Program-made: the position numbers and the translations under genes
Shown here: piece after piece, positions 7,053-59,217 of the stretch
Numbering within the stretch: position 1 is the first letter of the stretch
Layout: each line of letters opens with the position of its first letter
DNA from: Pseudomonadota bacterium
GTDB taxonomy: Bacteria; Desulfobacterota; Desulfobacteria; Desulfobacterales; JBDRRP01
Direction: 5' to 3'
Assembly (NCBI GenBank): GCA_043825735.1
Contig: JBDRRP010000093.1
Span: forward strand, 1-64,000
DNA: 64,000 nucleotides
The notes under the pieces: generated by a model
What the model saw: only the letters and a program-made list of their open reading frames with translations
The model's database searches: none
What the model was told of the DNA's origin: nothing

Positions 7053-7402
7053 GGGCCAAAATATCCATCACCTGCACGAGATCAATGATATGTGCTTACA
7101 CTTATAGGAAATATTGGATGCGCTGTCAAAGTCAAACCAATTGACCCGGGTGGGATGTCTTTGATAGGGTCGGCCCGACTTGGGTATGAATTCGATGATC
7201 GACAATACCCGCGTCGCGTCACAACCGCGATCCAACGCCATGACGGTGTTGTCTACCGCTAAGTTCACGAAGCACACAAGGTGTTAATTTCAAGGCCCTT
7301 TTTGTTTTCGCCGTGGCCTTCGTGCGCTTCGTGGTTTCCCTTGCAATGGTATGGGTATGCACAGCGCGTCGGTGCATCCTGCTACGGAAAGGATACTTCC
7401 CC

Positions 7403-8905
7403 ATGAAAACCATCGCCTTTGCCGGTACCGACGGCAGGACCCTGCTCTCGGCCTATATCATCTCCACCGCCACCAGTGAAACCGATGCCGACGCCTACCG
7501 GGGGGCTGTGGTCCGCGGCACACCGGCCATGCCCGAATTCTGCCGGCAGCTCGACTGGCCCGTCACGTTTATCCCGACTGCGAGCAATGCCGTGGCCGAC
7601 TACGCCGCGGCCATTATAGACGCCATGGCCAGCGGCGCCATCGACTACTTGGTACCCATGCCAGAGGCCCTTCTCTTTGAAGGGATCGTGAACACCGTTG
7701 CCGAAGCCGGGTACGGGGAGCGCATCCTTGGCCTTGACCGGGCAGGGGCCTTCATCGAAGGCGACAAGGTGCGCTGCAAGGCGCTTTGCCGTGATGCGGG
7801 CATCCCCATGGCCGATGCATGGATCTCCGTAGACGCCCGTGACTACACGGCCATCCTCGGCACCTGCCTCGAATACATCGACCGTTTCGGCGGCGCCGTG
7901 CTGAAATACCCTTACAGCGCCGGCGGCAAGGGCGCGCGCATCATCCGCAGCACCTGGGACATCCGTGAAGTTTACGAGACCCTGCTCGCGGATTACAAGG
8001 ACAGCTACCGAAAGATGTTCGGCAAAAAGGGGCCATGGCCCCTGCTGATCGAATCGCTCATGAGCGGCGTGGAGATCAGTTTCACCATCCTGGTGGATGC
8101 AAATGGCAACACCCGGATCCTGCCCACAGCCATGGACTACCCGGAGCGTTTTGAAGGGCCTGCCGGAAAGGGCAATCCCATCACCGGAGGGGTCGGCGCC
8201 ATATCGCCGCACCCCATGGAGACCGAAGCGCTGATGGCCATGGCCAGAGCCACCATCGCCGAACCCCTGGTACGGATCATGGCCGCGCGGGGCCTCCTGC
8301 GGCCGTGCATCCTCTACCCCGGGTGCTTTGTCTCCTTCGACGGCAACCACGCCCCCACCCGCATCCGGGTTTCGGAAATCAATATCCGGCCCGGAGAGCC
8401 CGAAGCCCAGCCGGTCGCCCGGCGTGTGCGCAATCTGGGAGCGCTCATCGTGGCCACCCTGGAAGGCCGGCTGGACACGGTCGCACCCGAAGTGCGCGAC
8501 GAGCAGATCGCTGCCTGCCTGGCCCTGGTGACCGGCCCCGGCGGCCCCGACGGCCAGAAGGGATACCCCTGGTCGTGCACCAAAGGCGAGCCTCTGGATA
8601 TCGACATCAAGTACATGAAGCGAAAAGGGATCCAGGTCATTCCATCCGCCATGGACTGGGACCCGGCCGCCGGCGTGTTCAAATCGGACGGCACGCGCGT
8701 GGCTTTTCTCAACGCCAACATGACCGTCAAAGACGGTGAGCGCCGCGGCGAGATTGCGGAAAAGCTCAGAAACCGCATCTACGCGGCCTTCAACAACGGC
8801 AAGATCCGGGTCATCCCCAGAGAGAACGCCGAGGGCAACCGTCTGGACGCCCGCCCGGACATCGCCGCCCAGTACAAGACGGTGGAAGATCTCTTTGGCC
8901 GGTGA
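7403..8905 (+). CDS. purD: Divergent phosphoribosylamine--glycine ligase (PurD)-like ATP-grasp enzyme
   Basis: PurD-like but altered motifs: MPEALL, FIEGDK, KYPYSAGGKG, GVEIS, MDYPER, PITGGVG, EINIRPGEPE. Confidence 0.6.
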   Translation: MKTIAFAGTDGRTLLSAYIISTATSETDADAYRGAVVRGTPAMPEFCRQLDWPVTFIPTASNAVADYAAAIIDAMASGAIDYLVPMPEALLFEGIVNTVAEAGYGERILGLDRAGAFIEGDKVRCKALCRDAGIPMADAWISVDARDYTAILGTCLEYIDRFGGAVLKYPYSAGGKGARIIRSTWDIREVYETLLADYKDSYRKMFGKKGPWPLLIESLMSGVEISFTILVDANGNTRILPTAMDYPERFEGPAGKGNPITGGVGAISPHPMETEALMAMARATIAEPLVRIMAARGLLRPCILYPGCFVSFDGNHAPTRIRVSEINIRPGEPEAQPVARRVRNLGALIVATLEGRLDTVAPEVRDEQIAACLALVTGPGGPDGQKGYPWSCTKGEPLDIDIKYMKRKGIQVIPSAMDWDPAAGVFKSDGTRVAFLNANMTVKDGERRGEIAEKLRNRIYAAFNNGKIRVIPRENAEGNRLDARPDIAAQYKTVEDLFGR

Positions 8906-9004
8906 TGGCCCGGATCGCGCCAGCCTGGTTATGCGCAATGATCAGGTTGGCTGTCCCCCCAGCGCTGAATGAGCGCCACGAAGAACACGAAGGCAGAACC
9001 CTGC

Positions 9005-9178
9005 ATCGCGCAAAGACGCAGAGGCGCAGAGGCGCAGAGAAAAACAAAACCAGGATTTCGTCGCACTATCGTGCGAAAAACCGGTTCAAGCTTACAGCGA
9101 CAAGAAGCTTTGGGTCATGTCCGACGAAGACGGAAAAATTCATGGTTTTCTCTGCGCCTCTGCGTCTCTGCGCGAGAT
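9005..9178. repeat. Palindromic element with (GCGCAGAG)n arms
   Basis: cgcgcaaagacgcagaggcgcagaggcgcagagaaaa ... ttttctctgcgcctctgcgtctctgcgcg; a related copy lies at ~29219-29308. Confidence 0.8.
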
Positions 9179-9460
9179 GTGTTTTTGTGGCATAGCCAAA
9201 TATCTCTGACCTGATCCTCAGGACCAGATCGGAATCGAATTCCAGGTGGCCGTAAGCCACGGTTTCTTCTTGGACCCGATCGCCGCTCTCAAACCGGCGA
9301 CGGAGCATCATGGCCACGCGGCATGGTGCTCGATTTCGATTTCAATTATTTCGAACAACCAGATTGTCCTGTTCACGGTGGCAGGCCATGCGCCCTCGCG
9401 GGTACGCAACGCTGACAAGTCGCCCTGTTGACATCTTCATCCGATTCTTCTACACCATTC

Positions 9461-9620
9461 TCAGTTTGGTGCCGAAAAGGCTTAATAGGGAATCTCGTTA
9501 AAATCGAGAGTGGTCCCGCCGCTGTGATCGGTGACGAAATCCGCATAAAGCCACTGCCCTTGCAAGGGGACGGGAAGGCGCGGAAAGTAGGATGATCCGT
9601 AAGCCAGAAGACCTGCCAAA
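9461..9620 (+). ncRNA. Cobalamin (B12) riboswitch
   Basis: Conserved blocks GGTGCC..AATAGGGAA, CCCGCCGCTGT, GCCACTG..GGGAAGGC and B12 box AAGCCAGAAGACCTGCC, upstream of cbiK. Confidence 0.95.
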
Positions 9621-9694
9621 TGCATCTGCCGAGTTACTGCGGGTTGATCAGTAAGCGGCATCGATAACCAAAAAGGGCCAAGAAAACTGGGTGC

Positions 9695-9732
9695 AGCCCT
9701 TCAGGCATGGAATGCCTGAAGGGCTTTTTTTT
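9695..9732 (+). terminator. Riboswitch expression-platform terminator
   Basis: agcccttcaggcat-gga-atgcctgaagggct followed by a T-run. Confidence 0.85.
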
Positions 9733-9780
9733 GGTCGCTGGCGCGGGCGGGGCCGCTCTCATCATCGGAAGGAGAAATCA

Positions 9781-10755
9781 ATGAAGCGTCTGGGTATCCT
9801 TTTTCTGGCTGCCGTTCTTGCAGTCGCCACCGCCGGCTTGGCGCCGGCATCGATGCACACGTCCGCAACGGTCAAAAAAGCAATCGTTCTTGCAGTTTTC
9901 GGAACCACAGTCCCCGCGGCACTGAAGTCCATCCTCTCGCTCCAGTCAAAAATGGCGCAGGCCTTTCCGGACATGCCGGTGAGCCTGGCCTTCACCAGTG
10001 AAATCGTCCGCGCCAAATGGGCCGGGCGGGCACAGGACGCCGCCTGGCGCCGGCAGCACCCGGAGGTCCCCGACGCCCTCTACACGGTTAAAAACCCGCT
10101 GGCGACGATCGCCAATCTTCAGGACCAGGGATACCGGTACATCGCCGTTCAGTCGACGCACATCTTCCCCGGCGAGGAGTACGAAAACCTCAAATCCGAG
10201 ATCGATGCGCTGGCCGCCATCCGGACCCTGCGCGATCGGGACAGACCCTTCAGGAAAATCGTCCTGGGCCGCCCGGCCCTGGGGGCGCCCGGCGACCGTC
10301 ACCCCTACAGCGAAGACATCGCCCACGCAGCGTTGGTGCTTGAAGCCGATATCGCCCTGGCACGCAAGAACCGCTCGGCACTGGTGTATATGGGCCACGG
10401 CAACGAGGTGTTTTCCACCGGTGTCTATATGGAACTGGAAGCGGCGCTCAGAGACAGTGCACCGGAGGTTCCTGTATTTGTCGGCGTTGTTGAGGGGTTT
10501 CCACCGCTCGAACGGGTGATCGACGCCCTCACCCACGCCAAAGTGAAAACCGTCACCCTGTTTCCCCTCATGGTGGTGGCCGGTGACCATGCAGCAAACG
10601 ACATGGCCGGAGCGGAAGACGATTCGTGGAAGACGCGCATCCAAGCCAAAGGCATCACTGTAACGCCGATGCTGCGGGGACTCGGTGAGGTGGACGCCTG
10701 GGCCGATATTTACGTGCAGCACCTCAAGGACGCGATGAAGGACGAGGGCTTTTAA
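9781..10755 (+). CDS. cbiK: Sirohydrochlorin cobaltochelatase CbiK, exported type with signal peptide
   Basis: FGTT, AFTS, PGEEY, MGHG, VEG.P and PLMVVAGDHA.NDM motifs; signal peptide MKRLGILFLAAVLAVATAGLAPA; AAGGAG RBS. Confidence 0.92.
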   Translation: MKRLGILFLAAVLAVATAGLAPASMHTSATVKKAIVLAVFGTTVPAALKSILSLQSKMAQAFPDMPVSLAFTSEIVRAKWAGRAQDAAWRRQHPEVPDALYTVKNPLATIANLQDQGYRYIAVQSTHIFPGEEYENLKSEIDALAAIRTLRDRDRPFRKIVLGRPALGAPGDRHPYSEDIAHAALVLEADIALARKNRSALVYMGHGNEVFSTGVYMELEAALRDSAPEVPVFVGVVEGFPPLERVIDALTHAKVKTVTLFPLMVVAGDHAANDMAGAEDDSWKTRIQAKGITVTPMLRGLGEVDAWADIYVQHLKDAMKDEGF

Positions 10756-50764: not shown

Positions 50765-50818
50765 TTGACAGCTTCGGTTGGCTGGCGTAGCGTGGCTGGT
50801 GGTAATACCACCAGCCAC
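50765..50818 (+). promoter_or_regulatory. sigma70 promoter overlapped by a FadR-type operator
   Basis: TTGACA-17bp-TAGCGT; perfect palindrome GTGGCTGGTGGTA-A-TACCACCAGCCAC (50792-50818). Confidence 0.8.
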
Positions 50819-50845
50819 ATTATGCCGAATCCGGAGAATCCACCG

Positions 50846-51574
50846 ATGGCCCGAAATCTTAGTCCGTTGACCGCCGAAAGTCTCAAGGATGCATTCGTGT
50901 CGCGATTCGAACACATGATCCTCTCGGGGGATCTGTCCATCGGCGAAAAACTGCCGGCGGAGCGGGACCTGGCTCAGCAACTTGGCGTCAGCAGGCCGGT
51001 GGTCCATGAAGGGCTTGTGGATCTGGTCGCCAGAGGGCTGCTCACGATCCGGCCGCGGCGCGGGGCCGTTGTCAACGATTTCCGAAAAACCGGATCCCTC
51101 GCCCTGCTCAATTCGCTGGTCAATTACGAAGGCGGCCTCGATCCGTCACTGCTCCAAGGGCTGCTGGACATGCGGGAGCTGATGGAAGGGGAAATCGCCC
51201 GGCTGGCGGCCCGGCACCGCAGCACGGCCCAAGTGGAAATGCTTCAGGCAATCGTCACGTCAGAAGCCGATGCGCTGGAAGATGCGGCCGCCTTCTGCGA
51301 TCTTGATTTCGATTTTCACCACCAGTTGGCCATGGCCTCGGCCAACCCGCTCTACCCGTTGCTGCTCAATTCCTTCCGAAACGTCTACCGTCACCTGACC
51401 AAACGGTTTTTCACCATCGCCGGGTCCGCACGCAGGACCCACCAATTTCACCGGGAGATCGTTGCGGCCATTGCGGCCGGAGAGAAAACCAGGGCCACCG
51501 AGATCATGGGCCGGATGCTCGCCCATGGACGCCGGATGCTGTTGACCGTCATCGAAGAAACTCAGGGAGCTTAG
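50846..51574 (+). CDS. GntR/FadR family transcriptional regulator
   Basis: KLPAERDLAQQLGVSRPVV; FCD domain D..FH..L..AS.N. Confidence 0.93.
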   Translation: MARNLSPLTAESLKDAFVSRFEHMILSGDLSIGEKLPAERDLAQQLGVSRPVVHEGLVDLVARGLLTIRPRRGAVVNDFRKTGSLALLNSLVNYEGGLDPSLLQGLLDMRELMEGEIARLAARHRSTAQVEMLQAIVTSEADALEDAAAFCDLDFDFHHQLAMASANPLYPLLLNSFRNVYRHLTKRFFTIAGSARRTHQFHREIVAAIAAGEKTRATEIMGRMLAHGRRMLLTVIEETQGA

Positions 51575-51577
51575 GCC

Positions 51578-54094
51578 ATGTCTACCGCCGTTGCCGAAAA
51601 GGCCGCTACTGCCGTTCGGACCCCGAAAAACCTGTCACCGCGGATCACCTGGTTGCGGGATTATTATTTCAAAGGAGCCCGGCGTCGGTGGAACAACGAA
51701 TTCACCGCCTGGACCACCGGCACCGACTGGGACGTGGTCTATGACGAGACATCGTTTTTCATCGTGCCGGAGACCTACCCGTTTTTGGCCACGTTCAAGT
51801 CGTCTTTCCGCCAGGCGGCACGACCGATCCCGCTGCCGTCCGATTTCTGGTCACGACCGCTGGCGGAGCGGCGTGCCTGGTTCATCCGGGAGGTGATGGT
51901 CGAGGCGCTGCCCAAAGAAATCTTACCCGGGGATCTCATCGCCGGGGGCCGGTTCAACATTCAGGCTTCCCGGTGCTGGAACGAAACGGAATCGGCGGCG
52001 CGCTCGCGGCGGCTCTACGGCAAAGACGGCGCCGCGGCGGCGATGAAATGGTTCCATGATCATGGTTACGGCAATGCCGGCGCCACCAGCGGGCACCTGA
52101 TTCCCGGCTACCAACGGGTGCTGACCGAAGGCTGGTCGGGTATCCACGCTGATCTGGAAGCCCGCTACAACGCACTGTCGCCGGCTGACCGGGAAAATCC
52201 CCGGGGCGTTCAACTCCGAGCCATGATGATCGCAGCCACCATGCCCCGGGACCTGGCCCGGAAATACGCCGCTCACTGCCGGAAACTGGCGGCAACGGAA
52301 ACCGATCCGGCCCGCTGCGGTGAGTTGTCCCAGATGGCGGCCAATCTGGACAAGGTTCCCTGGGCACCGGCCGAGACGTTCTGGGAGGCGGTCCAGGCCC
52401 TGTGGTTGACCCACATGCTGGTCCTCAGCGACGAGAACTATCCCGGCGCCGGAGTTTCCTTCGGCCGTATGGACCAGTACCTGCTGCCGTATTGGCAACG
52501 ATCCCTGGCCGGCGGCATGGACCGTGATTTCGGCAAAGAGATCCTCAAGTGTTTCTGGATCCACGCCAACACGGCCTACGATGCCATGATCCAAACCGGC
52601 GACCAGGGAATCACGGCCGGATTCGGCCAGTTGATCACCCTTTCGGGCATGGGGGCCGGGGGGCGGGACATGACCAACGATCTGACCTATGCCATCCTCG
52701 AAGTCATCGATGACATGTCGCCTATCTTGGAACCGAAGCCGAATGTCAGACTCCACCGCAACAGCCCTGGCCGACTTTTGAACACCGTTGTGGATATGAT
52801 CGGCACCAGCCAGGGAGCCCCGTTTTTGCTCAACTTTGACGAACGGTCCATGGCCGGTATGATGGTAGAGGCCCGTCGGGCGGGTGTTGAAGACCGGATC
52901 CATAAAGACAATGTCCATGAATACGCCCCGGTGGGATGCCTGGAAAACACCATGGTGGGTAACGACCGCAGCGGCACGGTGGACTGCAATATCAATTTGT
53001 TGAAAGCCGTTGAACTGGCCATCAACAACGGCCGTGACCTGCACGCGTTCACTGATCCCATCACCGGAAAGACCGATCCCGTCAGCCAGGACGGACCGGC
53101 CACCGGATCGGCGGCCGTGCTGGTCACCTGGGAGGATTTCTGGAGGGCATACACCGCCCAGACCGCGCATATCATAAAAAAGTGCGTTGCGCTCTACGAG
53201 ATGTCAGAATCGATCCGGGCCGACTATTGCCCCACCCCCTACCTGTCCTGCCTGGTCCGCGGCTGTGCGGAAAAAGGCCTCGACATCACCCGGGGGGGGC
53301 CGGAACTGAATTTCGTTACCATGGAGGCGGTGACCTTCGCCACCACCGTCGATTCGCTGCTGGCCGTCCGGTATCTTGTCTTCGATCAGAAAGCCTGCAC
53401 CCTGAAAGAATTGGCCGAAGCCTTGAAGGCCAATTGGCAGGGGCATGCAAAGCTGCGGGCCATGGCCATCAACAAAGCCCCCAAATACGGCCGCGACGAC
53501 GATGTCGCCGATGCCATGGCCCGGCAGGTGATGGATGTATGGACAGAGCAGGTCTGGCAGTACCGGACCCTTTCCACCGACCGCCAGTTCCGCCCCGGCA
53601 TGCTCAGTTGGAATTACTGGGTGGGTGACGGGTTTATCCTGCCGGCCAGTCCGGACGGCCGCCTAAAAGGGCAATTTCTCTCCAATGCCATCTGCCCGTC
53701 CAACGGTGCCGACATTCACGGCCCCACCGCCAATACCAACAGCGTAGGAAAGGCCCTCGGCGGCCATGCCGCCGAGGGACAAGGCGACTGGGCCGGATAC
53801 CGCAACTGCCTGCCCAATGGCGCGAGCCACACCATTACTTTCAATCCAGCCATGTTGCGCGACGGTGAACACAAGGCAAAATTTGCGGCCTTTCTCCGGG
53901 GGTATACGGAAAACGGCGGCACTGCCCTGCAGATCAACATGCTCGATCCGGAAACCCTTCGGGCTGCCCAGCGCCACCCCCAGGACTACCGCCATCTGCT
54001 TGTGCGGGTGACCGGATACAACGCCTATTTCACGAGTATCGGAAGGGAACTGCAGGACGAAGTGATCGCGAGAATCAGTCATAATCGATTTTGA
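51578..54094 (+). CDS. Glycyl radical enzyme (PFL superfamily), substrate unknown
   Basis: SFGRMDQYL, thiyl loop VGCLE, PKYG.DD, QIN and glycyl loop LLVRVTGY. Confidence 0.93.
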   Translation: MSTAVAEKAATAVRTPKNLSPRITWLRDYYFKGARRRWNNEFTAWTTGTDWDVVYDETSFFIVPETYPFLATFKSSFRQAARPIPLPSDFWSRPLAERRAWFIREVMVEALPKEILPGDLIAGGRFNIQASRCWNETESAARSRRLYGKDGAAAAMKWFHDHGYGNAGATSGHLIPGYQRVLTEGWSGIHADLEARYNALSPADRENPRGVQLRAMMIAATMPRDLARKYAAHCRKLAATETDPARCGELSQMAANLDKVPWAPAETFWEAVQALWLTHMLVLSDENYPGAGVSFGRMDQYLLPYWQRSLAGGMDRDFGKEILKCFWIHANTAYDAMIQTGDQGITAGFGQLITLSGMGAGGRDMTNDLTYAILEVIDDMSPILEPKPNVRLHRNSPGRLLNTVVDMIGTSQGAPFLLNFDERSMAGMMVEARRAGVEDRIHKDNVHEYAPVGCLENTMVGNDRSGTVDCNINLLKAVELAINNGRDLHAFTDPITGKTDPVSQDGPATGSAAVLVTWEDFWRAYTAQTAHIIKKCVALYEMSESIRADYCPTPYLSCLVRGCAEKGLDITRGGPELNFVTMEAVTFATTVDSLLAVRYLVFDQKACTLKELAEALKANWQGHAKLRAMAINKAPKYGRDDDVADAMARQVMDVWTEQVWQYRTLSTDRQFRPGMLSWNYWVGDGFILPASPDGRLKGQFLSNAICPSNGADIHGPTANTNSVGKALGGHAAEGQGDWAGYRNCLPNGASHTITFNPAMLRDGEHKAKFAAFLRGYTENGGTALQINMLDPETLRAAQRHPQDYRHLLVRVTGYNAYFTSIGRELQDEVIARISHNRF

Positions 54095-54107
54095 ACGGAA
54101 AATAAGC

Positions 54108-55076
54108 ATGACAACCGATCCCGAAAGCCTATTGACCGGCACCGTTCTTGAAATCCAGCGGATGTCTACCGAAGACGGTCCCGGTCTGCGGACAACGGTA
54201 TTTTTCAAGGGCTGCACGCTGCGATGCGACTGGTGTCACAACCCTGAAAGCATTGCCGCCCGGCCGGAACTCCAGTGGGTGGCCGCCCGGTGCATCGGTT
54301 GCCGAACCTGTCTGGAGGTGTGTTCCTGCGACGGGTTGAGCGCCGCCGGCGAGGGCATCGTCATCCACCGGGAACGCTGCACGGGATGCGGCGACTGCGC
54401 ACAGGCCTGCCCGTCCACCGCGCTGGAAATAATGGGCCACCGTTGGGCTGTCAACGATCTGGCCCGGGAGGTGCTCAAGGACCGGGCCTATTTTTTGACG
54501 TCCGGGGGCGGGGTGACGGCCTCTGGCGGGGAGGCCGCCATGCAGGCCGGTTTTGTCGCCGCCTTTCTGGCGGCATGCCGCGGGGCCGGTGTCCATACGG
54601 CCATAGATACCGGCGGACACGTGCAGCCGGAGGCCTACCGGATCCTGCTGCCCCAGTCCGACCTGGTGCTGTTTGATATCAAGATGATGGATGCCGAGGC
54701 CCATCGGTGTCACACGGGTGCCGGTAACCGCCTGATTTTCGAAAACCTACAGGCAGTTGCGACGGCCAAACGGACCACCGCCACACCGTCCCGGATCTGG
54801 ATCCGGACCCCGATAATCCCGGGTGCCACGGACACCGAGGCCAATATCGCCGCTATCGGCCGGTATATCGCCGCCCATCTGCCCGGTGATGTGACGCGCT
54901 GGGAGCTTTGCGCCTTCAACAACCTGTGCCGGGATAAATACCGGCAGCTGGGGCGACCCTGGGCATACGGGGAAACAGCGTTAATACCGGAGGCGCACAT
55001 GGCGGCCCTTGCCGACACCGCCAGAGACAGCGGCGTGGATCCGTCCATTGTGGTGCGCAGCGGCGCAACGCGCTGA
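54108..55076 (+). CDS. Glycyl-radical activating enzyme (radical SAM with ferredoxin insert)
   Basis: DGPGLRTTVFFKGCTLRCDWCHNPE; two CxxCxxCxxxC clusters; SGGE. Confidence 0.95.
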   Translation: MTTDPESLLTGTVLEIQRMSTEDGPGLRTTVFFKGCTLRCDWCHNPESIAARPELQWVAARCIGCRTCLEVCSCDGLSAAGEGIVIHRERCTGCGDCAQACPSTALEIMGHRWAVNDLAREVLKDRAYFLTSGGGVTASGGEAAMQAGFVAAFLAACRGAGVHTAIDTGGHVQPEAYRILLPQSDLVLFDIKMMDAEAHRCHTGAGNRLIFENLQAVATAKRTTATPSRIWIRTPIIPGATDTEANIAAIGRYIAAHLPGDVTRWELCAFNNLCRDKYRQLGRPWAYGETALIPEAHMAALADTARDSGVDPSIVVRSGATR

Positions 55077-55146
55077 CCGCCGGCAAGCCGGAACTTTTCC
55101 CATGAAATCGCGAAGCGCGCGCAGCCATCCGATCAGGAGAAACCGC

Positions 55147-55989
55147 ATGAAAACAGAATTGACCCCGGAAGACATCCGCGCCTTTGAACCCGAGGCCAAG
55201 GTGGGCCTTCTGGCCACCGTCGACCCCCATGGGCTGCCCCACATCACCCTGATCACCTCCCTGCGAGCCAGGACCGCCACGGAATTGATGTGGGGGCAAT
55301 TCAGCGAAGGCAAAAGCAAGCAACATGTCCGGGACAACCCGAAGGTCGGATTCCTGGTCCTGACCCCGGACCGACGGCTGTGGCAAGGCCGGGCCCGGTG
55401 GACCCAAACGGCCCGCTGCGGCCCGGACTTCGAGATCTTCAACAACCTGCCGATGTTCCGTTACAACGCCTACCTGGGAATCCACACCGTTCACCACATG
55501 GCGCTTGTGGACACCACCGGACAACAGCGGCTTCCCATGGCCGCTGTCGTGACGGCCACCGTGCTCACCCGCCTGGCCCGGCTGGCGTCACCGTCCTCTG
55601 GCGGCGGCATCCTGAGCGTCTGGGCCAGGGACCTGTTCAACGACCTGTCGTCCCTGAAATTTCTGGCCTATGTCGATGCCTGCGGTTATCCGCGAATGGT
55701 GCCGCTGATTCAGTGCCAGGCCCGGAGCCGGGACACCCTGGTATTTTCAGCCGCCGCTTTCGGCGCCGAGCTGCGGGCTCTTCGGCAGGGGGTTCCGGTG
55801 GCCGTCTTCGGACTGACCTTGAAAATGGAATCGGTCCTGGTGCGCGGGCCTTTCGGCGGTTTCAGGCCCTCCCTTTTCGGCCGGATGGGAAATATCGGAA
55901 TCAACTGGGTCTACAATTCCATGCCCCCCAAGCAGGGACAAATCTATCCGGCCGTCCCCCTCGAACCGATCGTGTGTTTCGACGACTGA
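55147..55989 (+). CDS. Tandem pyridoxamine 5'-phosphate oxidase-like (FMN-binding split-barrel) protein
   Basis: Two repeats of the LAT/LAYVD..G.P motif; KSKQHVRDNPKV; AGGAG RBS. Confidence 0.75.
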   Translation: MKTELTPEDIRAFEPEAKVGLLATVDPHGLPHITLITSLRARTATELMWGQFSEGKSKQHVRDNPKVGFLVLTPDRRLWQGRARWTQTARCGPDFEIFNNLPMFRYNAYLGIHTVHHMALVDTTGQQRLPMAAVVTATVLTRLARLASPSSGGGILSVWARDLFNDLSSLKFLAYVDACGYPRMVPLIQCQARSRDTLVFSAAAFGAELRALRQGVPVAVFGLTLKMESVLVRGPFGGFRPSLFGRMGNIGINWVYNSMPPKQGQIYPAVPLEPIVCFDD

Positions 55990-56051
55990 TCCGGCGGTCA
56001 CCATTGACCGTGCCGGCGCCTCGCAGCCCTCGGGTTGTTGGCCACCACTGG

Positions 56052-56113
56052 AAAGGCCGCAACCCGTCAGGGTTGCGGCCTTTTTTGTTTAATGGTGGCG
56101 ATGCAGGGAGTTG
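56052..56113. repeat. att-like direct repeat (tRNA-Met 3' end plus terminator)
   Basis: 60/62 identical to 59100-59161 by manual alignment. Confidence 0.93.
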
Positions 56114-56423
56114 GCTGGAATCTTTAACCTACTGAAATCATAAATGGGCACCCTTCGCCGGGTGCCCATATTTCTCAGCATTCTGCAACCTAAGCGCACC
56201 TGTTTGCCGGGTTTTTTCATGCTTTAACTCGTTAGACATTGTGAAAACAGGATGCCTTAGGTATACACTATCATGCAGACGATAATCTCGTCCCCTGGGG
56301 CGAGGTTGGGACATTTTGAACCGAGCCAAAAACTATAATTACAATATGTGGTGCGATGAATGGGGCCTATACCATACATGTAGGCATAACTCTGCCAGGA
56401 TGGCTTGGCAGAGTGAAAACCAC

Positions 56424-56459
56424 TTGACCGCATCCCTGCTGATACTATATTTAGTATCA
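56424..56459 (+). promoter_or_regulatory. TA operon promoter with palindromic operator
   Basis: TTGACC-16bp-TATATT, overlapped by TGATACTA-tatt-TAGTATCA (56440-56459). Confidence 0.7.
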
Positions 56460-56476
56460 CTATTTCTAAAGTTCTC

Positions 56477-56770
56477 ATGGCTAAGGTCGATAAAACATTA
56501 GAGAAGTGGCGGCAAAACACACCGACTGATGTGCCGGTAGACAAGGCTATTGGGATCATTGAGAGGTTTTTCCCCGGACAGTTTCAACAAAATCGCACAT
56601 CTCACATCGTGGTTCAAGATGACCGCCTGAAGGGAATCTATGGTTATGGCCCTGACGGCGATTTCACAGTCCCAGTTTCGGGTGGTCAAAAAGTTAAAGG
56701 CAAGTATCTAAAAAGATTAGCCGAAACAATCAAATACTTAAGTGAGTTAGAGGAGGGCGGGCATGAATAG
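56477..56770 (+). CDS. hicA: HicA-like toxin (dsRBD-fold mRNase)
   Basis: 97 aa; TSH motif equivalent to HicA GSH; FTVP and VKGKYLKRL C-terminal helix; overlaps the hicB start. Confidence 0.75.
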   Translation: MAKVDKTLEKWRQNTPTDVPVDKAIGIIERFFPGQFQQNRTSHIVVQDDRLKGIYGYGPDGDFTVPVSGGQKVKGKYLKRLAETIKYLSELEEGGHE

Positions 56771-57299
56771 AGATCTGGAATTTTATATGAACCTTCCATA
56801 CACAATTGAGTTGGTTCCTATTCCAGAATCTGAAGGCGGAGGATTCACGGCACAGTTGCCAGAAGTCGGGCGCTTATCAATTGTTGCGGATGGTGAAACA
56901 CCAGAGGAGGCTTTGAGCAGTCTAGATCATATTAAGCGAGAGCGCTTTTCTCATTACATTGAAAAGGGGCTCTCTATCCCTCTACCTGCAGAAACATTGG
57001 ATGAATTCAGCGGCCGATTCGTTTTACGAGTTCCCAAAGAATTGCACCGTAAATTAGTAGATGGAGCCAAAAAGAATGGAGCCAGCCTGAACCAATATGT
57101 AAATTACCTTTTGACATCAAATATACAATCAGATCATCACATGAATGAGGTAAACCGGATTGTCGGAAAGCTTGAAAGGATGTGCGAGACATTCCGAGAA
57201 ACTACCTATCATTTCTCTCTTGATATGCAAAACGCCAAAGTCGCAACAGAGCCGCCCTATTATATCACCAAGGGCTTCTCGCTCCCGAAAGCGGCATAG
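56763..57299 (+). CDS. hicB: HicB-like antitoxin with RHH domain and C-terminal extension
   Basis: YMNLPYTIEL, GGFTAQLPE, ADGETPEEAL, IPLP and FSGRFVLRVPKELHRKL..AKKNGASLNQY, plus a ~55-aa tail. Confidence 0.9.
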   Translation: MNRDLEFYMNLPYTIELVPIPESEGGGFTAQLPEVGRLSIVADGETPEEALSSLDHIKRERFSHYIEKGLSIPLPAETLDEFSGRFVLRVPKELHRKLVDGAKKNGASLNQYVNYLLTSNIQSDHHMNEVNRIVGKLERMCETFRETTYHFSLDMQNAKVATEPPYYITKGFSLPKAA

Positions 57300-57308
57300 G
57301 GGGATAAC

Positions 57309-57746
57309 GTGACCAAAAAATATAAAATGCCTCCTGAAGAATATTACGGCATACTACAAGACCTCGAACTGCGCGAAATATATTTGGAGAGATGTAGTAC
57401 TCGGATAGATCGAGAGGTATTTTTAGGCGAAAGCAATATAAAAGTTCAAGTTAGAGATAAGGCAGATTTTAAGATATTGGATGATGGGTTTTCCGTGAGG
57501 CATAAATACGATATTAAAATTGTTCCAGGAGATGAGACCTTGGGGACCGCCTTGACAATATCAGCGACTTTTTGCGCTAATTTTTCTCACCCTGATAAAA
57601 TTGATAATCTCAAAGAATTCTTTACAGTTTTTTCAGATGTAAATTTACCACTGAATACATGGCCATACTTTCGAGAGTTGGCCCAAAGCATGACTCAAAG
57701 GGCCAATGTACCTCCTCTCACTCTCCCTTTCATAAAAAGAAGATAA
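57309..57746 (+). CDS. SecB-like chaperone
   Basis: 145 aa; beta-rich body; C-terminal NTWPYFRELAQSMTQRANVPPLTLP matches the SecB PYxRExxxxxxxRxxxPPLxLP signature. Confidence 0.85.
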   Translation: MTKKYKMPPEEYYGILQDLELREIYLERCSTRIDREVFLGESNIKVQVRDKADFKILDDGFSVRHKYDIKIVPGDETLGTALTISATFCANFSHPDKIDNLKEFFTVFSDVNLPLNTWPYFRELAQSMTQRANVPPLTLPFIKRR

Positions 57747-58088
57747 TATACACCGGAAACCCGAAAAACACCTCAATCGGTTGGTGTCACAAAGGGGCAA
57801 CCAAAACCGGTTGCCCTTATCCTTTCTGATTCTGCAACCTATGCACATCCGTTTCCCTTTTAAGCCTCTATTTATCCTCCTCATTCGAATCGCTCATCTA
57901 CTTGAAATTACTAGTTACAGAAACGAAAATAACTGCAACCATATCCAACTAAAATTATTCGAAAGTTAACCGGACACTACTGTTGCCAAACATATTTTTA
58001 TACGCAACATCACCGCCAGGGACCAAAATCAAGATTGACAAAAAAGTTGTTCACGTTAAGAAATAGCACCATAGGGGCACCGAGACTC

Positions 58089-58841
58089 ATGAAAGAGCGC
58101 ATTGTTTCCCCACAAAACCCACAGGAGGTCTTGACCGAACTAACATGTCCCAACAAAGATGAAATTGATGAGTTCTTAAAGGCCTTCCCCGCAGAAATTC
58201 TTCAGTTTTCAGAGTCTTTCTCAACAGCTTATAAAGGATACTTAGAACTTAACCACACTACTCTTTGCCCATCAAATACAGATGGTGAGATCACCCAAAA
58301 AGATTACGTCACTTTCTTCACATACCAAATTTTAGACAACCTCTTCACATCAACCAAAACGCTTTTGAGTGGATTTCAGACTGCATCCGGCAATCTCTTG
58401 AGGCAGGCTACTGAGGGTATTGCCGTTGTTATCCTATTGTCTTTGGACCATACGATACAGAGAACGGAACGGAGAAAGGGGAAGGAAAAGAAAAAAACTT
58501 TCCATTTCTACCAAAGCTTCAAGAATGAGAAAGCCTATGCTCTTTCACATCTTGCTATTAGACTTCTGCTGGAAAACCAGAAACTTGTTGGAATCACCGA
58601 CTATGGCATTGAAATGCTTGGAATTATAAAAGAATATAGCAACAAGCATAGTCACCCTACATTTTTCAGCACAAGTTCGTTTATTTCCTACGGGATGTCC
58701 GGGAAAATGTACTTGGGTGGAAGCTTTGATAAAGGTAAGATCGATTGGTATAGAAGCGAGCTGCAAGCCAGAATTGGTTTTTGCGACAAATTACCCGCTC
58801 TAATTAGAGGTTTGGTCAAAAAGGTCAGAGACTTACAATAA
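58089..58841 (+). CDS. Hypothetical helical protein, possibly HEPN-like
   Basis: AT-rich ORF; LLRQATE and SNKHSHP motifs. Confidence 0.65.
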   Translation: MKERIVSPQNPQEVLTELTCPNKDEIDEFLKAFPAEILQFSESFSTAYKGYLELNHTTLCPSNTDGEITQKDYVTFFTYQILDNLFTSTKTLLSGFQTASGNLLRQATEGIAVVILLSLDHTIQRTERRKGKEKKKTFHFYQSFKNEKAYALSHLAIRLLLENQKLVGITDYGIEMLGIIKEYSNKHSHPTFFSTSSFISYGMSGKMYLGGSFDKGKIDWYRSELQARIGFCDKLPALIRGLVKKVRDLQ

Positions 58842-58959
58842 TTGTTAACAGCCATGAGACGATACGCCGAGCAGCTGAAAACCTACCTGAAGGAACTGAA
58901 CGCGTAACCGGGAGGTTTGAACCGGTGGTGCGAGAGCCGAGGGCAGGAGACCGAGGAAC

Positions 58960-59090
58960 AATCAAGCATGCCATGGGCCATGACTTTATTCAGATCACCG
59001 TGAATGTTTACGGCCCCCTGCTCCCAGCTGAGAGCAAAGGAGAGGTGAACCGCTCGATGAAGCAACCACCCGCAATCTATCCGCAACCAT
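58960..59090 (+). pseudogene. C-terminal remnant of a tyrosine integrase
   Basis: IKHAMGHDFIQITVNVYGPLLP resembles integrase box II (LGH..I..T...Y); abuts the att repeat. Confidence 0.65.
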
Positions 59091-59140
59091 CACAACAGCA
59101 AAGGCCGCAACCCTTCAGGGTTGCGGCCTTTTTTGGTTAA

Positions 59141-59217
59141 TGGTGGCGATGCAGGGAGTTGAACCCCGGACACTACGGATATGAGCCGTATGCTCTAACC
59201 AACTGAGCTACATCGCC
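59141..59217 (-). tRNA. tRNA-Met (CAT), elongator type
   Basis: Reverse complement GGCGATGTAGCTCAGTTGGTTAGAGCA TACGG CT CAT AT CCGTA ... GGTTCAACTCCCTGCATCGCCACCA. Confidence 0.95.

Follow-up and report, generated by a model that had tools for sequence, protein, structure and literature searches.

Which reaction is catalysed by a glycyl radical enzyme (GRE) that resembles none of the characterised classes closely, and what is the role of the split-barrel protein whose gene accompanies it? This question is raised by a four-gene locus in a 64,000-nucleotide stretch of DNA from a Pseudomonadota bacterium placed by GTDB in the Desulfobacterales (assembly GCA_043825735.1, contig JBDRRP010000093.1, positions 1 to 64,000), which as a whole we call the window. 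Here, genes for a FadR-type regulator, a GRE, its radical S-adenosylmethionine (SAM) activase and a PNPOx-like protein (hereafter the partner) lie on the plus strand, separated by 3, 13 and 70 bp. The reading that we favour, and to which we give about an even chance, is that these genes form an autoregulated operon encoding a two-subunit GRE of an uncharacterised family, of the eliminase/isomerase type, with the split barrel as its bound beta subunit.

Class and active site of the enzyme

Open reading frames (ORFs), gaps and motifs were read from the window sequence and its translations, and domains were assigned with Pfam and NCBIfam, which gave concordant assignments for all four proteins. 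The catalytic protein has the hallmarks of the GRE superfamily, matching PFL-like (PF02901, 406 bits) and Gly_radical (PF01228, 76.6 bits). Its Cys loop, ...APVGCLENTMVG... (APVGCLENT), holds a single cysteine, C454, followed by E456, and its glycyl loop, ...LLVRVTGYNAYF..., carries RVTGY with G813, which is invariant in 20 of 20 aligned homologues; C454, E456 and H173 are invariant as well. Besides the catalytic Cys, the superfamily is marked by a cognate radical SAM activase, and this too is present: the activase combines a CX3CX2C motif (C36/C40/C43) with two CX2CX2CX3C motifs (C62-C72, C91-C101), has Fer4 matches at residues 61-106 in addition to Pfam Radical_SAM, and scores 306 bits with TIGR02494 (cut-off 174). 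The original prediction, drawn from the sequence alone, had described the single-Cys and RVTGY loops, a two-cluster ferredoxin insert in the activase and four co-oriented genes with these same gaps; the translations, the two extra cluster motifs with their Fer4 matches, and the ORF coordinates agree with it on each point.

Comparison with characterised classes placed the enzyme in none of them. The formate lyases (PFL, TdcE) do not fit, the VGCLEN loop having a single Cys and the TIGR01255 (pyr_form_ly_1) score reaching 83 bits against a cut-off of 994. Scores for the NCBIfam equivalog models were likewise far below their cut-offs (HpsG 353/1000, HypD 350/1100, HpfG 343/1000, CutC TIGR04394 314/1050 bits), and even the generic PFL2-3 subfamily model was missed (421 bits vs 678). 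Decarboxylase models scored 225 (IAD) and 165 bits (HPAD), compared with 343-353 bits for eliminase models. The best solved-structure match was a CutC at 317 bits, followed by HypD, A. fulgidus PFL2 and IseG at ~280-283 bits; these alignments begin only at GRE residue ~171 (171-834 for CutC), the N-terminal 170 residues not being alignable. Motifs specific to the family are KWFHDHGYGN-GATSGH, SDENYPG-GVSFGR and FRPGMLSWNYW. An AlphaFold2 model of the full-length GRE, built from 20 alignment rows, had a mean confidence (pLDDT) of 69.7 and was not used further. As far as its sequence can tell, the GRE is outside every characterised class, which is what the original prediction had proposed.

To relate the active site to known chemistry, residues were mapped with HMMER alignments and offsets counted from the catalytic Cys. 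C454-L-E456 is invariant, also in a sister clade described below, and conforms to the Cys-x-Glu (CXE) motif that defines eliminases and isomerases in sections 5.6 and 5.7 of the June 2026 GRE review (PMC13450708). H173 aligns with the active-site histidine of HypD, found at chain position 180 and numbered His160 once the offset from the catalytic Cys is applied; by alignment start, H173 corresponds to residue 164 of glycerol dehydratase (GD, 1r8w). The histidine of the dehydratases GD, propanediol dehydratase (PD) and HypD is thus in place, while the equivalog scores for this group (HpfG included) are not reached. CutC has an Asp at the leaving-group position where this enzyme has H173, and its equivalog score is likewise under the cut-off. 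For the C-S lyases (IslA, IseG, HpsG), whose sulfonate is anchored by two Arg and one Gln, only the equivalent of IseG Arg676 is present, as R672; the positions of IseG Gln191 and Arg187 hold H173 and A169, an assignment extrapolated from the alignment start (by two residues for Gln191). Section 5.6 of the review describes GD His164 as protonating the leaving hydroxyl and the Gln/Arg set, including IseG Arg676, as anchoring the sulfonate (PMC13450708). Taken together, the CXE loop and His173 resemble those of C-O-cleaving dehydratases or isomerases, which favours a C-O eliminase or isomerase. An anionic hydroxy substrate is further suggested, because R672 sits at an anion-binding position and the regulator is of the FadR type, whose members usually sense carboxylates or acyl-coenzyme A (acyl-CoA); the two point the same way.

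Its likeness to the known groups is accordingly partial in each case. With the C-O 1,2-eliminases (B12-independent GD, PD, HypD, HpfG) the window GRE shares the PFL2-type fold, the single Cys in a CXE loop, the His at GD His164/HypD His160, the RVxGY loop and an activase with two extra clusters; it differs from them in scoring about one third of their family cut-offs, in its own motifs and unalignable N-terminus, and in a locus that lacks their typical neighbours and has an obligate split-barrel partner. The GRE isomerases (YbiW, PflD, HplG) also have the CXE loop and cleave C-O or C-N bonds beside a hydroxyl-bearing carbon, and the lack of a product-handling aldehyde dehydrogenase in the operon would fit an isomerisation like theirs; on the other hand, their solved structures match with just 211-243 bits and no sugar-phosphate or aldolase genes are nearby. 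R672 matches the sulfonate-anchoring Arg676 of the C-S lyases, whereas their other two anchors differ, and neither a sulfite reductase nor a TRAP transporter, the context of such lyases, was seen among the neighbours scanned.

The partner, its linkage and the predicted complex

The original prediction had named conserved linkage to the split-barrel gene as a test of its proposal, and the linkage held throughout. Relatives of the GRE form more than 120 protein clusters that are 69-86% identical across the full 838 residues, with generic or automatic names, and, when one genome was scanned for each species, they were found encoded in at least 589 species genomes. The best 80 of these (at least 589) loci were studied; they come from Desulfobacterales, Syntrophaceae/Smithella, Spirochaetota/Leptospirales, Myxococcota and metagenome-assembled Bacteroidales genomes. 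The partner gene lies 3′ of the GRE in 67/67 informative loci, that is, those whose sequence continues for >1.1 kb beyond the GRE; the other 13 of the 80, which lack the partner, stop no more than 1,075 bp past the GRE and were left out as uninformative. The activase stands between the two in 65 of the 67, the partner following the GRE directly in L002 and L015. In an even sampling of 401 genomes from the phylum, with the GRE called at E <= 1e-150, 49 have the GRE, 50 a partner homologue and 47 both, on one contig and within ~4 kb in 44 of these 47. In the two GRE-only genomes (G091, G269) the GRE match is on a short contig, and the partner-only exceptions (G264, G312, G211) are three weak or isolated matches.

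The linkage extends to a sister clade, which accounts for 22 of the 49 GRE-bearing genomes. Its GREs (~805 aa) score 530-964 bits, compared with >1500 in the core family, share 46-51% identity with the window GRE and retain H173, R672, the CXE loop and the SWNYW strand; its partner homologues are more distant (E 1e-9 to 1e-42). The order GRE, activase, partner was found in all 12 fetched sister loci, except that the activase is missing in L083. Because this clade, with GREs at 46-51% identity, also has the partner, the pairing is old and was kept while both proteins diverged. The sister clade may correspond to the D. vulgaris DVU2272-2269 operon (PMC4641369), which is no more than a guess. In the ESM Atlas, clusters of look-alike tandem split-barrel proteins come most commonly from Promethearchaeota (Asgard archaea), Chloroflexota and Bacillota, and the partner family may therefore reach beyond the phyla of the genome scan.

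The partner belongs by sequence and fold to the PNPOx-like family. PNPOx_N (PF01243) matches residues 7-84 only, with 39.4 bits (cut-off 28.1), and recognises 35/39 of its relatives. Its N- and C-terminal halves are homologous (hhalign probability 70.7%, E 3.8e-5), and an AlphaFold2 model from a 39-row alignment shows two split barrels (pLDDT 87.1, pTM 0.85), so that the description "tandem" in the original prediction was apt. Foldseek matched each half to single-domain PNPOx-like proteins (E 9e-7 to 1e-4, TM by target 0.55-0.77), HupZ being best at 8.7e-7, followed by the F420 reductase MSMEG_3380, the prenylated-FMN maturase PhdC and the D. vulgaris FMN-binding protein. Each half shares the fold of these proteins, which are single-domain homodimers, whereas the partner consists of two diverged copies fused into a pseudo-dimer. 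A further difference is that conservation in the partner peaks in two surface loops, for which binding to another protein is predicted: PMFRYNxY (P102-Y109) and NSMPPxxGQIYP (N257-P268), the only segments with pLDDT <50 in the monomer model. RYNxY and PPxxG are retained in sister-clade partners, while most other partner positions are not conserved between the clades.

A complex of the two proteins was modelled by co-folding GRE residues 1-718 with the full partner, in three runs and with three controls, using our own alignments. The interface score ipSAE was 0.81, 0.81 and 0.84 in the runs, whereas the best of the three controls reached 0.00; the mark for this score, reached by 116/157 solved complexes and 2/215 mismatched pairs, is a rough guide here given the use of our own alignments. 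The runs share at least 75% of their contacts, with a partner pLDDT of at least 86. On the GRE, the predicted interface comprises residues 29-117 (chiefly helix 64-80), 337-347, 494-497 and 679-686; on the partner, residues 16-17, 52-55, 102-113, 157-160, 226-230, 257-266 and 272-280. The partner's interface is richer in invariant residues than the rest of the protein (12/41 vs 21/239, Fisher p = 7.5e-4) and includes both invariant loops of low monomer confidence. The GRE segments 337-347 and 679-686 flank the positions aligned with HypD Ser334, Phe340 and Thr645, which we take to line the HypD active site. The co-fold thus points to a bound accessory subunit on the GRE rather than a separate enzyme. 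If the partner is such a subunit, the earlier statement that the locus has no small-subunit gene would need revising.

Several observations weigh against this reading. The GRE side of the predicted interface is not enriched in invariant residues (12/45 vs 259/673 elsewhere), and the last 120 GRE residues, including the glycyl radical domain, are absent from the co-fold, which places any clash or contacts there beyond assessment. The pair S57/K58, which might bind a flavin phosphate, is invariant throughout the core family and is not retained in the sister clade. The CXE loop occurs in the decarboxylase HPAD as well, and the motif is therefore no proof of elimination. A search for longer proteins that include the partner gave no fusion with the GRE or the activase, which is weak evidence. 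One 639-aa open frame (in genome G115) was considered as a partner fusion and rejected, being an out-of-frame overlap with the activase gene.

Measured against the multisubunit GREs, the system may have one of their features and lacks the other. Binding of the partner to the catalytic subunit is a prediction (ipSAE 0.81 vs 0.00) for a GRE cut at residue 718, and a small iron-sulfur (Fe-S) subunit resembling a high-potential iron-sulfur protein (HiPIP) or rubredoxin is missing, the partner consisting of two PNPOx-like split barrels. The passages on accessory subunits in the GRE review give these for only three GREs, all of them Fe-S proteins, and describe loops of BSS-beta and MASS-beta that cover the substrate channel (PMC13450708). 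Like BSS (beta, gamma), MASS (beta, gamma, delta) and HPAD (gamma), the window operon encodes a small protein, here predicted to sit on the catalytic subunit, and the partner's predicted loop near the active-site entrance recalls the hairpins of BSS-beta and MASS-beta. Unlike the HiPIP- or rubredoxin-like subunits of those enzymes, the partner is a 280-aa tandem split barrel without an Fe-S motif; and whereas BSS, MASS and HPAD are hydroalkylases and a decarboxylase, the window GRE is of the CXE eliminase/isomerase type.

Proposed mechanism and competing explanations

In the mechanism that we propose, the activase would install a radical on G813, generating the C454 thiyl radical. With E456 serving as the base and H173, at the leaving-group position, as the acid, the enzyme would break a C-O bond adjacent to a hydroxyl-bearing carbon, in a 1,2-elimination (dehydration) or an isomerisation of the YbiW/HplG type. 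The substrate would be hydroxylated and anionic, probably a carboxylate, and partly anchored by R672. As a bound beta subunit rather than a free downstream enzyme, the split-barrel protein would use its C-terminal tail, together with the invariant RYNxY and PPxxG loops, to clamp the family-specific N-terminal helices of the GRE (29-117), and would reach the GRE strands 337-347 and 679-686 that flank active-site positions. From there it may close off or gate the entrance to the active site in the manner of BSS-beta and MASS-beta, though with an entirely different fold, and it may contribute a flavin or residues that bind the substrate. The FadR-type repressor would act through a conserved TGGT-N3-ACCA operator heading the operon.

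The predicted complex suggests that the partner is a new type of GRE accessory subunit. No paper describing a pairing of a GRE with a split-barrel protein or flavoprotein was found in a literature search of main texts; papers on limonene, Desulfatiglans and benzene were unrelated in the parts seen. In the passages available of the GRE review, none of the characterised eliminases and isomerases has a split-barrel partner (PMC13450708). A further-reaching version, which we regard as tentative and rather doubtful, is a new architectural class of GRE in which a split-barrel subunit docked over a CXE-type active-site entrance carries either a flavin or, for a large substrate, its nucleotide/CoA-like handle. 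If this were true, thiyl-radical chemistry would in the flavin case be coupled directly to flavin redox, for example in a net reductive dehydroxylation, and in the handle case a large substrate would be presented by the split-barrel subunit. To our knowledge, neither a flavin-coupled nor a substrate-presenting subunit arrangement has been described for any GRE.

The roles that can be set against a bound subunit differ in what the partner would act upon. It could be a free FMN- or F420-dependent oxidoreductase that acts on the product or substrate of the GRE and forms no stable complex, reducing for instance an aldehyde, ketone or iminium product as pyrroline-5-carboxylate reductase does after HypD. 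The PNPOx_N score above its cut-off is consistent with such an enzyme, as are the F420- and FMN-binding proteins among its nearest folds (MSMEG_3380, PhdC, the D. vulgaris FMN-binding protein) and the invariance of S57/K58 in the core family; strict gene linkage fits a pathway partner as well as a subunit. Yet the best fold match is HupZ, a heme-binding protein without flavin, S57/K58 is lost in the sister clade, the Pfam threshold is reached by the N-terminal half only, and a complex is favoured both by the co-fold score (0.81 vs 0.00 for controls) and by an interface that contains the best-conserved loops of the partner, for which reasons we think this explanation unlikely, if a serious one. 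The partner could alternatively serve the radical machinery, either as an electron donor to the activase clusters in place of flavodoxin or as a factor in radical installation, quenching or protection. Its gene directly follows that of the activase in 65/67 loci, its fold is like that of the small electron-transfer FMN-binding protein of Desulfovibrio, and BSS-beta modulates radical installation according to section 4.2 of the review (PMC13450708). We nevertheless judge this role improbable, since three loci (L002, L015, L083) lack an activase gene between GRE and partner, and since the predicted contacts are made with the N-terminal region and the barrel rim of the GRE.

Two other explanations concern the GRE itself. 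Were it a decarboxylase, or of another class, acting on a carboxylic acid, the partner would be a small subunit like HPAD gamma; the carboxylates or acyl-CoA usually sensed by this type of regulator and R672 as a possible carboxylate anchor would agree with this, as would the Cys-x-Glu loop of HPAD. A small subunit is needed by HPAD according to the review (PMC13450708). Scores of 225 (IAD) and 165 bits (HPAD) far below those of the eliminase models, a His173 that matches the dehydratases, and small subunits known only as Fe-S proteins and not as split barrels make this distinctly improbable. That the GRE is simply an ortholog of a characterised enzyme (HypD, GD/PD, CutC, IslA/IseG, HpsG/HpfG, YbiW/PflD or HplG), with the partner incidental, is hardly credible: some homologues do bear the automatic labels 'trans-4-hydroxy-L-proline dehydratase' or 'formate C-acetyltransferase', but the equivalog scores amount to roughly a third of their cut-offs, the best solved-structure match (317 bits) covers residues 171-834 only, the CutC Asp and the Arg/Gln anchors of the C-S lyases are unmatched, and the linkage to the partner is universal.

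Operon organisation, surroundings and significance

The cassette appears from its sequence to be a self-contained, autoregulated transcription unit, because it has a terminator, a promoter-like site and a conserved operator 5′ of the regulator (Table 1). The candidate -10 element matches the consensus at 3/6 positions and is hence absent from the consensus promoter scan list. The predicted operator, also written TGGTAATACCA, forms the middle of an inverted repeat of 21 nt that spans 50784-50826. A similar site, with at most 4 mismatches over the 16 specified positions, was found 5′ of the regulator in 41/45 related loci; in 90 control stretches within GRE genes the best site had 5 mismatches and most had 6-8. 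The longer frame of the regulator would contain the operator, and GGAGA (50833-50837) precedes the internal ATG by 8 nt (N8); therefore, the start at 50846 is the most likely one.

Table 1. Features of the GRE operon, with positions in the window
Feature	Position	Strand	Remarks
Candidate sigma-70 promoter	50765..50793	+	-35 TTGACA (50765-50770), 17-nt spacer, weak -10 TAGCGT (50788-50793); putative
Palindromic operator TGGTGGTAATACCACCA	50797..50813	.	Core TGGT-N3-ACCA; just 3′ of the candidate -10
GntR-family, FadR-subfamily regulator	50846..51574	+	242 aa; ATG at 50846, open frame from 50747
GRE catalytic subunit	51578..54094	+	838 aa; C454-x-E456 Cys loop, G813 glycyl loop, H173, R672
Radical SAM GRE-activating enzyme	54108..55076	+	322 aa; two auxiliary [4Fe-4S] ferredoxin motifs
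Tandem PNPOx-like split-barrel protein	55147..55989	+	280 aa; proposed accessory subunit; ATG preceded by an AGGAGA ribosome-binding site
Intrinsic terminator ending the operon	56050..56095	+	16-bp stem with 9 G-C pairs, then a T-run; also given as 56050-56085

The regulator has the features of the FadR subfamily, namely a GntR winged helix-turn-helix (63 bits), a FadR_C/FCD domain (83 and 74 bits) and a palindromic operator, and a homologue of it lies 5′ of the GRE in 47/80 loci. It resembles E. coli FadR and other FadR-subfamily GntR regulators in these domains, and the E. coli FadR box has the same TGGT-N3-ACCA architecture as the window operator; it differs from FadR in falling under every NCBIfam equivalog cut-off (e.g. 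FadR 108 bits vs 189). A 415-aa open frame antisense to the GRE (51923-53170, minus strand) is typical of high-GC coding DNA and was not treated as a gene.

Around the operon, 13 flanking ORFs were scanned, including Usp, a K+ channel, HU, a HicB-like protein and proteins without assignment; microcompartment, aldehyde dehydrogenase and transporter genes were not among them, as the original prediction had stated. Directly 3′ of the terminator, a low-GC stretch (56000-59217; 40-47% vs ~60%) holds the HicB-like gene (56763-57299) and ORFs without assignment and ends at a tRNA-Met (59141-59217, minus strand); its appearance is that of a small island integrated at this tRNA gene. Far 5′ of the operon lies a cobalamin riboswitch aptamer (RF00174, 109.9 bits, 9450-9634, plus strand). 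The DNA is represented in a groundwater metagenome, and no reads from two metatranscriptome runs of the same study mapped to the stretch, which tells neither for nor against expression.

Clustering of 1384 flanking ORFs from the 80 loci gave no third conserved gene, as no family occurred in more than 10 loci, and no transporter or downstream enzyme recurred, the 35 same-strand downstream neighbours being heterogeneous. The recurrent families (aldehyde:ferredoxin oxidoreductase 8, SCP2 6, sulfatase 6, iron-containing alcohol dehydrogenase 5, enoyl-CoA hydratase 4, acyl-CoA dehydrogenase 4) hint weakly at aldehyde or acyl-CoA metabolism, a hint that we did not build on. In six loci (L007, L009, L010, L033, L038, L068) aldehyde:ferredoxin oxidoreductase and an SCP2-domain protein are encoded 3′ of the cassette on the same strand, with an iron-containing alcohol dehydrogenase in five, a weak hint at an aldehyde product. 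Three others have a second, different PFL2-type GRE (~790 aa) directly 3′ of the cassette (L012 ~7400-9806, L041 5028-7397, L071 11797-14178), which is under all equivalog cut-offs and has no activase of its own beside it; L071 has a further GRE with activase 5′ of the cassette (1-1593).

Gene contexts in the sister clade differ again from those of the core family. One sister cassette lies inside a Liv-type ABC transporter operon (L091, 5104-13420), with a binding protein 5′ and two permeases and two ATPases 3′. Five sister loci of family f22 (L084, L085, L089, L090, L092) have thiamin pyrophosphokinase (5) and the thiamine transporter ThiT/YuaJ (4) divergently 5′ of the GRE, the only recurrent neighbours there, and a thiamin pyrophosphate (TPP) riboswitch precedes these genes in the two loci where it was detected (L084 9659-9753 and L090 14318-14413, both plus strand). 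A link of thiamine to the sister GRE was considered and rejected: the riboswitch is on the strand of the thiamine genes and not of the GRE, all five loci belong to one family, and the arrangement is probably synteny.

In conclusion, because the cassette is spread over at least 589 species-level genomes, its substrate is probably one commonly met in anoxic sediments, groundwater and digesters. If the reading that we favour is true, an eliminase-type GRE with an obligate flavoprotein-like subunit would represent a new architecture, and the four genes would offer biochemistry a well-defined and self-contained system, whose own regulator and operator provide a handle for finding the substrate.

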